64,000 bases of DNA, taken from Flavobacteriales bacterium. GTDB lineage: Bacteria; Bacteroidota; Bacteroidia; Flavobacteriales; BACL11. Below are positions 31,526 to 34,866 of this stretch, in pieces (within the stretch, counting starts at the first letter, position 1; every line of letters starts with the position of its first letter). Under the pieces are notes generated by a model. That model was not told the DNA's origin and searched no databases. It saw only the letters and a program-made list of their open reading frames with translations. Made by a program: the position numbers and the translations under genes. The DNA lies in contig CANNBA010000002.1 in assembly GCA_947502765.1 (NCBI GenBank), positions 15,672-79,671 of the forward strand. Direction: 5' to 3'.

Positions 31526-32140
31526 ATGAGAATTTTATTTATTCTTTTCTTATCCGTTCAGTTTTTATCCGCTCAACAGCTTGTTGATAGTGGTATATTT
31601 GAGGTGTGTTATTCTGAAAAAAAACAACAACCCTTATGGTTAGAATATGAAGTAGCCTGTCATACAAAAGCTTATGATCGTAAAGGATTGGATTTTAAAC
31701 AAGACAAGTCTTTTAAAGGAGTAACTTCTGATGAAAATGATTACCACAAGAATGTATGGGATAAAGGCCATTTGGCTCCTGCTGCCGCTTTTAATTGCGA
31801 TTATGAAAGCTTAAAAGCAACCTTTTCTTATTTGAATTGTGCTTTGCAGCACGAAAAACTAAATAGGGGGCCTTGGAAAGATTTAGAGGCATATGAGAGA
31901 GAGTTATCCAAAACATATAAAGTTAATGTTAGGATTGAGTTGGAATTTGATTCTCAAAGTTTATTGTTGGAGACAGGAGCATTGGTTCCTTCTTTTTTCA
32001 GAAAAATAATAAGTTATAATAATATTCAAAGAGTATTTCGCTTCCCAAATAATACAAGCGTTTACAAAAGGAAATGGCAAAATTATGAAGTACACGCACC
32101 TTTTAAAATAATAGAAGGATGTAAAGAATATTCCTTCTAA
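31526..32140 (+). CDS. secreted DNA/RNA non-specific endonuclease (NucA/EndoG family)
   Basis: Signal peptide; WDKGHLAPAA (DRGH-type); LNRGPWKDLE. Confidence 0.9.
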   Translation: MRILFILFLSVQFLSAQQLVDSGIFEVCYSEKKQQPLWLEYEVACHTKAYDRKGLDFKQDKSFKGVTSDENDYHKNVWDKGHLAPAAAFNCDYESLKATFSYLNCALQHEKLNRGPWKDLEAYERELSKTYKVNVRIELEFDSQSLLLETGALVPSFFRKIISYNNIQRVFRFPNNTSVYKRKWQNYEVHAPFKIIEGCKEYSF

Positions 32141-32270
32141 TTATCAGATTAAATCTTAATCTTGATGAGGGCACTTTATATGATATTGTTAAATGTTTGT
32201 TAATAAATCGGACTGAATTTTAAACCCAATATTTTTTTTTAGTACACTTAATTTCTATTTTCGTATTGTA

Positions 32271-32470
32271 TTTAGTACACTAAAGGATAGTGTAAAAGGG
32301 AATGGGGTGAGATGCCTCAACTTTTCCAGAAGCTGTAAGGTTCGTATAATTTGAATACCGCAATGCCACTGTTTAAACAACGGGAAGGCCAATTCAGAGG
32401 ACCAAGTCAGAAGACCTGCTAAATGCCATTATGTTAAATATTCTCTGGAAGAAGAGTATTTAAGATTTTT
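32271..32470 (+). ncRNA. cobalamin (B12) riboswitch with expression platform
   Basis: AAAAGGGAA..GGTGAGATGCC, GCTGTAA, GCCACTG, GGGAAGG and B12 box AAGTCAGAAGACCTGC. P1 is TTTAGTA/TGCTAAA. Downstream hairpin 32434-32463 has loop TCTGGAA, complementary to TTCCAGA at 32324-32330 (kissing loop). Confidence 0.92.
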
Positions 32471-32493
32471 AAAAATTAAAAAAAATATTTATT

Positions 32494-33699
32494 ATGAAAA
32501 AAAGTGCATTTTGTATGCTCGTTTTGGCTGTACAAATAACTGCTGCCAAAGCTCAAGAGTATGTTCATCAGGTTATTGTTTTAAATGAAGGTTATTTTGA
32601 TTATAACTTAAATCAGTCTATTGTTCCACCCACTTTAGGTTCTTATAATCCAACTACACAAGCCTATACTAGCGTTGACACTTTGCATACAGCAAGGTTT
32701 GCTTCAGATTTAGTTGTTGATGCTAATTATTTTTATGTTGCAGCAGACAATATGTTGTATAAGTATGATAAAAATACCTATGATGTAATTACAACTCAAG
32801 CAGTAGATGGTATCCGTAATTTATCAGTTTGGAATGATAAAATTATTGTAACTAGAGGAGATTATGATAATACTACATTTTCACCAATATTTTTTAATTC
32901 GTATTTACAAGTATTTAATACTTCAGATTTAAGTTTACATACAGAAATAGATACTATAACAGGGCCTAAATGGGCAACACAAAATTTAGTTGTTAATAAT
33001 GACAAGCTTTATGTTGCAATAAATAATGCTTATGAATGGGGTAATTATAAAGGACTTGTTGGGATATTGGATTTAAATACTTTTGCTTATTTAAACGAAA
33101 TAGATTTAGGAATAGATGGGATTAATCCTGATAATATGATTAAAAGTGGAGACCATATTTACACTATTAATAATAAAGATTGGTCGGGATCTTCTATATC
33201 ACAACTGAGTTTATTAACCAATTCTGTTATTACTACCAATTTAGCTGCTGCTCCTACTGGCTGTGGTACATCATGTTTGCGAGATAATAAAATCAATTAT
33301 CAAATTTCAGGAGATACTATTTTAAATGAATGGGATCTCTCTTTATTACCTAGTACAGGATCACCATTACCAATTAGTCAAAGTTTTTATGATTTATCTT
33401 ACGATCCTATTAATACTCTACTGTATGCAAGTATAACTGATTATGCTACTTCAGGCTCAGTTAATATCTATGATGCCAATAACTTTTTACTTTCTTCTTT
33501 TGTATGTGGAATTTCACCAGGAACCATTGTTTTTGATATTAGAAGTGCTACAACTGGTATTTCTTCAGTAGTTTCAGATAATGTTGATCAAAGTTCTAAT
33601 CAATACTATGATATGCTTGGTAGATTAATTAGCAATGATCGATTTATTAAGAGAGGTATGTATATAAAAGATAATAAGCAGATTTTTATTGTTAAATAA
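32494..33699 (+). CDS. BtuG/DUF5074-like beta-propeller with T9SS type-A-like C-terminal sorting domain
   Basis: Cleavable signal peptide (AKA-Q, no lipobox); VLNEGYF motif; propeller blades; CTD TGISSV...YYDMLGR...RGMYIKDNKQIFIVK; directly downstream of the B12 riboswitch. Confidence 0.75.
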   Translation: MKKSAFCMLVLAVQITAAKAQEYVHQVIVLNEGYFDYNLNQSIVPPTLGSYNPTTQAYTSVDTLHTARFASDLVVDANYFYVAADNMLYKYDKNTYDVITTQAVDGIRNLSVWNDKIIVTRGDYDNTTFSPIFFNSYLQVFNTSDLSLHTEIDTITGPKWATQNLVVNNDKLYVAINNAYEWGNYKGLVGILDLNTFAYLNEIDLGIDGINPDNMIKSGDHIYTINNKDWSGSSISQLSLLTNSVITTNLAAAPTGCGTSCLRDNKINYQISGDTILNEWDLSLLPSTGSPLPISQSFYDLSYDPINTLLYASITDYATSGSVNIYDANNFLLSSFVCGISPGTIVFDIRSATTGISSVVSDNVDQSSNQYYDMLGRLISNDRFIKRGMYIKDNKQIFIVK

Positions 33700-33743
33700 A
33701 TTTTTTATTTGCAAAGAATCTACTATCTTCTATCATTAAAATT

Positions 33744-33773
33744 AAAAAGGCCGAGTATTACTTGGCTTTTTTT
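33744..33773 (+). terminator. intrinsic terminator between the two propeller genes
   Basis: GCCGAGT-att-ACTTGGC stem (one G-U pair) followed by 7 T and preceded by an A tract. Confidence 0.7.
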
Positions 33774-33795
33774 ATCTTTACCAAAAAATAAAAAC

Positions 33796-34866
33796 ATGAA
33801 ATTATTCAATTATTTACTAATAGCTACACTTCTTATTTCTTCATGTAAAGAAGATGAGGCTGATGGGCCTATTTTTGATGAAAATTATGGAGAAGGAATG
33901 TATATTGTTTCAGATATAGGCGTTAGCTTTTATAATTACAAAGATTCGTTAGCACAAGTAATAAATCAGATTTATAAAACGGTTAATAATATCACAATTA
34001 GTAATCCAAAGAAAATTAAATTCAATGGGGGTAAAGCTTATATTTTAGCTGATAATTATATTATTGTAGTTGATGCAAAAACATTTGAACATCAGGGGAT
34101 GATTAGTGGATTTGTAAATCCTGTCGATTTTGATTTTGTAAGTAATGATAGATTTTTTGTAGTAGATAAAGGGGATTCAAAAGTAAAAGTAGTTGATCTT
34201 AAGAATATGGAAATCACTTCTGATATTGAAACTGGAGACAATACTAGTCCAGTGTTTATTTTAAGCAATTCATACAAATCATTTGTTTTAAATGGAGGTG
34301 AATTATCAAGTCAAATAAAAGATTCAACAGTTGTAGTAATTGAGTTTAGAGATAATTTAGTAGCATTAGCTAATTTTGAAGGAAGTCTTCAAGTTGGAGA
34401 AAATCCTAATTCTGCAATTTTTACACAGGCTGGAAGATTAATAGTATTATGCAAGGGAATTTATGATGTAGTAAATCCAAATAATAATACAGCATCTTCT
34501 TTATCTGATATAAATCAATATAGCAATGAAGTATATAGTACGGATATTCTTTCAGGAATATATAACGCCCAAAATTTAATTAGTAATTTTGATAACAGTA
34601 GATGTTATTTTACAGCAGAAGGGGGCGTTTACAAACTCAATTCAAACACTCTAAATGTTACTTCATTAGCGAGTGTCAATGCTAGCGTGATTAATACAAA
34701 TATTGAATCTCTTGAAGTAAACGATAGTACTACGGTGTATTATGAAATGTTATATATGAATGATGTCAATTCTCCAAATTCTATCTATAAATACAATCTT
34801 GATTTATCATCTTTTGTTGATACAATTATTGTTAATGGCACTGTAAGAGATATTAAATTCTATTAA
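33796..34866 (+). CDS. BtuG/YncE-like beta-propeller surface lipoprotein (start moved to 33796)
   Basis: MKLFNYLLIATLLISS-C-KEDE lipobox with acidic export signal; blades GKAYIL, VKVVDL, DSTVVVI, VGENPNS. Confidence 0.72.
   Translation: MKLFNYLLIATLLISSCKEDEADGPIFDENYGEGMYIVSDIGVSFYNYKDSLAQVINQIYKTVNNITISNPKKIKFNGGKAYILADNYIIVVDAKTFEHQGMISGFVNPVDFDFVSNDRFFVVDKGDSKVKVVDLKNMEITSDIETGDNTSPVFILSNSYKSFVLNGGELSSQIKDSTVVVIEFRDNLVALANFEGSLQVGENPNSAIFTQAGRLIVLCKGIYDVVNPNNNTASSLSDINQYSNEVYSTDILSGIYNAQNLISNFDNSRCYFTAEGGVYKLNSNTLNVTSLASVNASVINTNIESLEVNDSTTVYYEMLYMNDVNSPNSIYKYNLDLSSFVDTIIVNGTVRDIKFY

Follow-up and report, generated by a model that had tools for sequence, protein, structure and literature searches.

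In the Bacteroidota, according to PMC10404256, every locus for the uptake of cobalamin (vitamin B12) is built around BtuB. BtuB forms complexes with BtuG proteins, of which BtuG1, BtuG2 and BtuG3 of Bacteroides thetaiotaomicron (PDB 3DSM, 8BAI, 8BMY, 8OKV and 8P97; DUF5074/PF16819) are seven-bladed β-propellers with a lipid anchor and a surface-export motif, encoded under cobalamin riboswitch control. Here we describe a locus of two genes, P1 and P2, in a 64,000-nucleotide stretch of DNA (the window) from a Flavobacteriales bacterium (assembly GCA_947502765.1). The locus resembles the Bacteroides systems in its propeller fold, its Asn-Glu-Gly (NEG) clamp loop, its cobalamin riboswitch and its Bacteroidota host, and differs from them in that neither the locus nor the genome contains BtuB. 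We lean towards reading it as a B12-repressed module for corrinoid capture that is independent of BtuB.

PMC10404256 describes a clamp around B12 in BtuG2, one jaw of which is the loop Asn54-Thr64. Trp194, Trp272 and Tyr316 surround the upper ligand, and Tyr239 and Tyr335 are further contacts. Corrinoid binders at or outside the cell surface, several in number, are reported to pass B12 on towards a transporter, in work on BtuH (PMC8941943), BtuJ1 (bioRxiv 10.1101/2025.07.01.662609), BtuK1 (PDB 9S6C) and a 'multiprotein extracellular relay' (PMC13616437). The accessory binders of B. thetaiotaomicron described there are lipoproteins or vesicle-linked and serve BtuB, whereas here the predicted route is of T9SS (type IX secretion system) type and there is no BtuB. 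BtuK1 is among the Foldseek fold matches of both P1 and P2. A likeness of BtuH to HmuY was considered and dropped, as PMC8941943 makes no reference to HmuY.

The haemophores HasA and HmuY are also secreted or surface-located binders of a tetrapyrrole that serve an outer-membrane receptor; their folds are unrelated to that of P1, for which no cognate receptor could be identified. Among the papers found on BtuG with T9SS, or on type IX secretion with cobalamin and BtuB, none presents a T9SS-tailed BtuG-like protein in its title or abstract. What is new in the present case is the reduced tail, the family-specific lipoprotein partner, the B12-auxotrophic genome without BtuB, and the pattern of mutual exclusion.

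Two BtuG-fold proteins behind a cobalamin riboswitch

The locus is made up of the following elements.

32256-32437 (+), cobalamin riboswitch aptamer (RF00174; cmscan 96.6 bits, E 7.7e-23, model positions 1-189 of 189)
32431-32475 (+), possible expression platform, a weak call: A/U-rich hairpin with a U run after it, both lying before the 32494 start codon
32494-33699 (+), P1 gene, 401 residues
32494-32553 (+), P1 signal peptide, residues 1-20, with an AKA/QE site and no lipobox (read by eye; hydrophobic helix at residues 2-15 in the model)
32554-33549 (+), P1 BtuG-fold β-propeller, residues 21-352 (AlphaFold2 model, Foldseek and family profile), with the conserved pocket motifs N31-E32-G33-x-F35, N177-N178, W182-G183-N184, N226-N227, G256-C257-G258, Y299 and T315-D316
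33550-33600 (+), P1 variable linker, residues 353-369 (predicted local distance difference test score, pLDDT, below 50 at 355-365; mean top-residue frequency 0.33 in 115 sequences)
33601-33699 (+), P1 short C-terminal tail, residues 370-401 plus stop, a reduced derivative of the type-A T9SS C-terminal domain (CTD), which keeps YDxxGR and GxYI..KK..I.K
33744-33772 (+), terminator-like hairpin between P1 and P2, 13 pairs plus a T run (consensus scan and sequence)
33796-34866 (+), P2, a BtuG-fold surface lipoprotein of 356 residues, with the lipobox LLISSC (C17) followed by K18-E19-D20-E21

The original prediction, made from the DNA alone, held that a complete cobalamin riboswitch stands upstream of P1. 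The covariance model bears this out: the match covers the full aptamer, passes the RF00174 gathering threshold of 31.5 bits, and stops 56 nt short of the start codon of P1. The window has no other Rfam match, and the genome as a whole has no other match to RF00174. The predicted RNA fold of 32405-32500 (-11.6 kcal/mol, z-score -0.68) is no better than that of shuffled sequence. Seventeen entries recorded as RNA contain part of the stretch, with a highest share of 0.60.

P1 has no match in Pfam or NCBIfam at E≤0.1 and no PDB sequence match at E≤10. An AlphaFold2 model was built on an alignment of 80 diverse family members and has a mean pLDDT of 91.4, with values in the propeller mostly of 93-99 and dips to 86. 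It agrees with the earlier description of P1 as a β-propeller with a signal peptide. In a Foldseek search of the PDB with this model, the first 16 matches are all BtuG (BtuG1, BtuG2, BtuG3/BT2095 and 3DSM), most of them cobalamin-bound, with E-values of 2.6e-16 to 2.4e-13. The target TM-scores are 0.74-0.80 against BtuG chains solved alone, and 0.43 against the BtuB1-BtuG1 chain 8blw_B. The profile built from these 80 sequences aligns with BtuG2 chains along the entire propeller (E 2.8e-14), with the blades in the same order and no circular permutation. Given the structural matches and this collinear alignment, P1 is a distant, collinear homologue of BtuG.

The predicted binding site is also conserved. 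The NEG motif noted in the original prediction is present as N31-E32-G33 and is invariant in 115/115 clade members. In the profile alignment BtuG2 N54-E55-G56-N-F-Q-Y corresponds to P1 N31-E32-G33-Y-F-D-Y, and the clade conserves this stretch (N31, E32, G33, F35 and D36 each in 115/115, Y34 in 114/115, Y37 in 90/115). The other positions invariant in all 115 are N177, N178, G183, N184, N226, N227, G256, C257, G258, S260, Y299, T315 and D316. P1 retains an aromatic residue at four of the five named pocket residues of BtuG2: W194 aligns with Y180 (W182 lies two residues on), Y239 with W230, Y316 with Y299 and Y335 with Y317. The pocket is under strong selection and is BtuG-like with one clear difference, which is weighed below. 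From this alignment-based comparison we infer that P1 would bind corrinoids.

C257 deserves separate mention. It is present in 55 of the 80 diverse family members, and in 44 of the 80 it is the sole cysteine among the three P1 cysteine positions examined (257, 261 and 338). In those 44 it has no disulfide partner, because the other two positions carry no cysteine. On the more specific and tentative form of the proposal given below, such a lone cysteine might take part in thiolate-cobalt chemistry, as in BtuM.

The second propeller was predicted to carry a lipobox and a KEDE export signal, and it proves to do so on a BtuG fold. The listed open reading frame (33709-34866) opens at TTG; this extension passes through the terminator-like hairpin, and the ATG at 33796 is therefore the likely start. 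The P2 model has a pLDDT of 88.8, and its top Foldseek matches are again BtuG (E 5.0e-17), with target TM-scores mostly of 0.78-0.81 and of 0.71 against the BtuG1/2 entries 8ptd and 8ptf. The relationship is also visible in sequence: with phmmer, P2 matches nine different PDB sequences of the BtuG type, spread over 14 entries, at E 4e-7 to 2e-4, a P2-family profile matches the BtuG PDB sequences at E 7.7e-12, and two close homologues of P2 have a precomputed PF16819 match. Among 38 sequences C17 does not vary, and the conservation of K18 is 90% or more. C17-K18-E19-D20-E21 fits the surface-lipoprotein export signal K-(D/E)2 just past the +1 cysteine, as given in PMC5080379. By sequence, P2 has the lipid anchor and surface-export motif of a Bacteroides BtuG, unlike P1, which has no lipobox and combines a signal peptide with a reduced tail of T9SS type. 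P2 is without the Asn residues of the NEG clamp, however, which makes its ligand less certain. That P2 is a paralogue of P1 holds at the level of the superfamily (hhalign Prob 70.8%, E 3.8e-5) but not in a direct comparison, where BLASTP gives a non-significant E of 0.02. As phmmer queries at E≤10, P1 and P2 each matched only themselves, and no paralogue of either was found in the genome.

Apparent exchange with BtuB-BtuG and the search for a receiver

The distribution of P1 was compared with that of BtuB in 301 Flavobacteriales genomes, membership of the P1 clade being set at E<1e-100 and BtuB orthology at E≤1e-40. P1-clade orthologues occur in 31 genomes, all of 0.8-2.0 Mb, and BtuB in 108; 162 genomes have neither. 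The most informative outcome is that no genome has both, where about 11 would be expected under independence. Both types are nevertheless found within the same genus in five cases (P1/BtuB genomes: g6 2/5, g4 1/5, g32 3/3, g40 5/1 and g21 1/1).

The window belongs to a family here called f1. In another f1 genome, locus L068 occupies the same site, between pyrD (81% identity) and HMGL (80%) on one side and the M42 peptidase gene (79%) on the other. A riboswitch comes first there, followed by BtuB, then by a canonical BtuG that carries a complete T9SS CTD, and last by a P2 orthologue (51% identity). The L068 BtuG matches BT2095 at E 2.6e-49, PF16819 at 4.2e-18 and PF18962 at 2.9e-11, and carries the T9SS CTD rather than a lipid anchor. 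P2 lies just 3′ of BtuB in three further BtuB-type f1 genomes, and in 6 genomes a weaker match to the A1 profile of the P1 search (E ~3e-19 to 3e-33) directly adjoins BtuB. The occurrence of both types within five genera, together with the shared chromosomal site, suggests that P1 has repeatedly taken the place of BtuB-BtuG(CTD) and that P2 stayed behind in f1.

The other parts of the locus are not equally widespread. P2 follows P1 in 7/7 f1 genomes and in 0/23 other loci, and a profile search finds it absent from 9/9 P1-type genomes of the families f9, f8, f2 and f15. To judge from this distribution, P1 works without P2 outside f1. A riboswitch lies just upstream of the P1 orthologue in 17/20 relatives' loci (12/12 in f9 and 5/6 among the f1 relatives); with five further relatives and the window added to these 20 loci, it stands beside P1 in 18/26 genomes.

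Some relatives show other arrangements. In two f15 relatives (L063:8687-9181 and L064:8504-8992) the beginning of the P1 orthologue is overlapped by a gene for a DUF6580 membrane protein (PF20221, E 1.7e-37 and 5e-36), which could be an inner-membrane partner there. DUF6580 was not found in the host genome by a weak search, in which the control genomes were also unmatched. In f8 (L065:8004-10130, minus strand, genome G025; also genome G147) the P1 orthologue is fused into a protein of 708 residues and there is no riboswitch. After this fusion gene come genes for lipoproteins of two kinds, DUF4856 and imelysin, and for a TonB-dependent receptor, a set typical of iron uptake. An apparent P1-like pseudogene, with 3 TGA and 5 TAA codons, is found at G125:C2:187730-188765.

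The host genome (1.63 Mb in 23 contigs, rated 100% complete, with the window on contig C2) encodes the B12-dependent enzymes MetH (1211 residues), methylmalonyl-CoA mutase (1001 residues) and an IcmF-like fused mutase (1130 residues). MetE, CobS and CobD/CbiB were not found in it. On this gene content, the host depends on B12. A search of the genome yielded no BtuB orthologue: the L068 BtuB, whose best PDB matches are BtuB3, BtuB2 and BtuB1 of B. thetaiotaomicron, gave only plug-level similarity when used as a query (phmmer E 1.2e-5; tblastn 26% over 114 residues). The original prediction had P1 hand corrinoid to P2 and to a distant BtuB, and the proposed hand-off to BtuB consequently has no candidate receiver. 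Its observation that the locus contains no TonB-dependent receptor or ABC gene was correct and extends further than the locus. None of the 15 Plug-domain (TonB-dependent receptor) matches of the genome lies on C2, and no permease of the FecCD (BtuC) type, and no BtuF/BtuC-type system, was found genome-wide. FecCD was likewise absent from congeners of both the P1 and the BtuB type (0/5 genomes).

Receptor sets were compared in two congeneric pairs, and four candidate receptors were tested. The receptor at C13:9948-12011 (687 residues) has the top TIGR01779 score in the genome, 123.7 bits, where the genuine BtuB of L068 scores 142.2. It was rejected as a B12 receptor: its neighbours, an HmuY protein and an FMN-binding one, point to haem uptake, and it occurs in P1-type and BtuB-type congeners alike. 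The same haem-type cluster is seen in full at C13:8163-13156 (L070), where a porin-like protein, an FMN-binding protein, a TonB-dependent receptor, a small lipoprotein and an HmuY-family lipoprotein are encoded. C3:57174-59354 has a heavy-metal-associated protein and a CTD protein as neighbours and does not track P1. In two f8 genomes the C19 receptor stands within a few genes of P1, yet its surroundings encode an M13 peptidase, an SIS protein and a protein of Mpo1-like type. C22:2223-4421, with BtuB as its best NCBIfam match (74.6 bits, where the cut-off is 836), looked linked to P1 in one genus. In a wider test it was present in 4/6 P1-type f1 genomes and intact in 2/13 of the BtuB type, the latter having in addition one fragment and one copy with stop codons. 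It was rejected as a partner that co-varies with P1. The orthologue at G036:C2:431738-433931 is an apparent pseudogene (1 TAG, 3 TAA).

It is worth adding that 4 of the 15 TonB-dependent receptor genes (C5:44865-47153, C9:90520-93327, C3:112030-114852 and C3:57174-59354) are followed on the same strand by a gene for a PF18962 protein, and that these CTD proteins take the position that a SusD-like or BtuG-like lipoprotein would occupy in Bacteroides. T9SS cargo is thus commonly paired with TonB-dependent receptors in the host genome, and a receptor for P1 encoded elsewhere is plausible for this reason.

The short C-terminal tail of P1

PMC10994853 describes the T9SS translocon and PorV as binding a folded seven-stranded CTD mainly by its shape. 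The type-A CTDs treated there (PF18962/TIGR04183) share with the P1 tail the YDxxGR and GxYI motifs and the lysines near the C-terminus. They differ from it in length (~75 residues, against ~32-48) and in having a PNP motif, initial strands and an inner strand that the tail lacks; secretion by the tail is a prediction. The genome has the machinery that such a signal would need, with SprA at 2699 bits and 37 ordinary CTD proteins over the PF18962 cut-off. The two motifs are those of the D type (YDxxGR) and the E type (GxYI) of T9SS CTD.

The original prediction gave P1 a T9SS-type tail, and this stands as a statement of homology but not as one of a canonical domain. PF18962 misses P1 even at E≤10, and P1 is not among the 43 matches (37 over the cut-off) of a genome-wide PF18962 scan at E≤0.01. 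TIGR04183 misses it in NCBIfam at both E≤0.1 and E≤1, the lone match at E≤1 being spore_CmpA at a chance-level E of 0.11. The P1 family is nonetheless one of T9SS cargo, PF18962 being carried by 59 of its 80 diverse members, though not by P1 and its clade of ~400-residue proteins; by alignment, the tail of this clade is without the PNP segment, which includes the first strands, and without one inner strand. In hhalign the short tails match the full CTDs of the family (Prob 90.8%, E 1.2e-6) and the host genome's own CTDs (Prob 87.4%, E 3.7e-6), and the gap in the alignment coincides exactly with the absent inner strand.

What remains of the domain is well conserved. In 115 sequences the linker before the tail varies freely while the tail columns are conserved (Y372 0.85, D373 0.98, G376 1.00, G388 0.93, Y390 0.91, K395 and K396 0.77). 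A hidden Markov model of the last 34 residues finds a P1-type tail on three other proteins of the genome, C3:13998-15920, C3:16206-17999 and C9:66651-67493 (E 6e-12, 1e-11 and 1.5e-5), all with an N-terminal signal peptide (by eye) and all unrelated to P1. Since the same conserved tail recurs on these signal-peptide proteins, we regard it as a conserved, shortened derivative of the type-A CTD that probably still serves as a sorting signal. T9SS-dependent export of P1 is somewhat more probable than not.

A second tail of ~40 residues, KxLxKIxDxLGRE...LFYIYDDGTVEKKxxIE, ends 21 open reading frames of the host genome (model E≤1e-12), examples being C1:79270-80628, C6:61039-62181, C19:13384-16170 and C22:5555-7264. 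The passenger domains of the 12 seed sequences are unrelated, and by eye 11 of the 12 open with a signal peptide. This tail is absent from the PF18962 matches, and NCBIfam gives no sorting-domain match in the four frames scanned. In hhalign it is weakly similar to ordinary CTDs (Prob 17%) and reaches Prob 48% against the P1-type tail. The same endings are also found in f8 and f2 relatives.

Proposed function and alternatives

We propose that scarce cobalamin would lead the riboswitch to permit synthesis of P1, which would cross the inner membrane by Sec and be routed by its short modular tail through T9SS to the cell surface or the medium. The BtuG-type propeller pocket of the exported protein would then bind corrinoids. 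P2, a BtuG-like surface lipoprotein restricted to the bacterial family f1, would be an accessory binder kept beside either P1 or BtuB-BtuG, and the bound vitamin would pass to an outer-membrane transporter that is not orthologous to BtuB. B12 repression, T9SS export, corrinoid binding and delivery to the transporter are all predicted steps. A more specific form of the proposal is that several streamlined marine lineages of Flavobacteriales gave up BtuB-BtuG and put in its place, at one and the same chromosomal site, a single exported BtuG-like protein under riboswitch control, which has a miniature, hitherto unannotated sorting tail and an invariant lone cysteine where the upper-ligand cavity of BtuG is lined. 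This form is tentative, and we consider it somewhat doubtful.

Several observations weigh against a BtuB-independent capture module. One is that no receiver for the captured B12 was found, none of the four candidates tracking P1; a soluble propeller cannot replace a membrane transporter, so that part of the pathway is missing from the account. The zero overlap between P1 and BtuB overstates the number of independent events, because the genomes of relatives do not count as independent cases. It is uncertain whether the riboswitch controls P2, since the terminator-like hairpin separates P2 from P1 and may uncouple it; in relatives the gap between P1 and P2 is merely 30-60 nt. A further difficulty is that the DUF5074 model (PF16819), which the original prediction put forward as a check, matches neither P1 nor P2 at E≤10, and is found in only 1 of the 80 P1-family members. 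In the pocket, Trp272 of BtuG2 is replaced by G258 of the invariant G256-C257-G258, and the loop corresponding to Asn54-Thr64 has a 6-residue insertion; for these two reasons the P1 pocket differs from that of BtuG. Eight of the 26 genomes with a P1 orthologue (G128, two of f2, and five f8/f15 loci) have no adjacent riboswitch. These last points, together with the invariant cysteine in the pocket and the housekeeping or iron-type genes next to P1 in f8, would suit a P1 whose ligand is not a corrinoid, the riboswitch then reflecting a physiological need that depends on B12 rather than capture. We think this very unlikely, given that the closest structures are all B12-bound BtuGs, that the clamp loop and four of the five named pocket residues are retained, that the single B12 riboswitch of an auxotrophic genome sits on P1, and that P1 swaps with BtuB-BtuG at the same site. 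P1 remains unlike BtuG in having no BtuB next to it, and its binding of B12 is predicted.

The tail raises a different difficulty. It fails both T9SS CTD models, at 32-48 residues it is too short for the seven-stranded sandwich of a CTD (~70-80 residues), and it is modelled at low confidence as short strands (pLDDT 55-78). If it were no T9SS signal, having lost the N-terminal strands and the PNP motif, P1 would be periplasmic and could stand in for BtuF as a high-affinity B12 binder that feeds an inner-membrane transporter. The lack of a BtuF/BtuC-type system in the genome and the DUF6580 gene overlapping the P1 orthologue in f15 would both fit. We regard a periplasmic P1 as unlikely, because the tail is conserved, homologous to CTDs and modular (it occurs on four unrelated signal-peptide proteins), and because it is the outer-membrane pair BtuB-BtuG, rather than any periplasmic component, that P1 alternates with. 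Moreover, the BtuB-bearing congeners are without FecCD too, and passage across the outer membrane would stay unexplained. The missing receiver could also be a true BtuB elsewhere in the genome, highly diverged or lost in an assembly gap, that is fed by P1 and P2. The genome is in 23 contigs, the C13 receptor comes near the L068 BtuB in its TIGR01779 score, and the C22 receptor has BtuB as its best NCBIfam match. Against this, 0 of the 31 P1-clade genomes have BtuB at E≤1e-40, including G116 (3 contigs, 100% complete), and none is found even at E≤1e-5 in G116, G042 and G055. The C13 receptor belongs with HmuY and is common to both types of congener, and the C22 receptor is also intact in BtuB-type f1 genomes. 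A hidden BtuB is accordingly quite unlikely in our estimation.

In the sea, vitamin B12 is traded and is often in limiting supply, and Flavobacteriales are major consumers of algal carbon. If corrinoid capture by P1 is real, maps of B12 uptake drawn from genomes by means of BtuB miss these lineages, and a new outer-membrane route for B12 would still have to be found in the lineages of the P1 clade. On the more specific form of the proposal, B12 auxotrophs abundant in the sea would use a BtuB-independent uptake, through a receptor or a mode of cofactor transfer that would be new. For protein sorting, the implication would be that current models miss short tails, of which the host genome has at least four proteins of one type and 21 of another.

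The neighbours of the riboswitch-P1-P2 locus are as follows.

Upstream: pyrD, an HMGL-like lyase and a secreted non-specific endonuclease
Downstream: SDR (short-chain dehydrogenase), a photolyase and the M42 peptidase

The gene directly 5′ of the riboswitch (31526-32140) encodes a DNA/RNA non-specific endonuclease (PF01223, 4.5e-28), which is probably secreted since it has an N-terminal signal peptide. It matches L068:4926-5526 in three pieces, which has the appearance of a disrupted gene.

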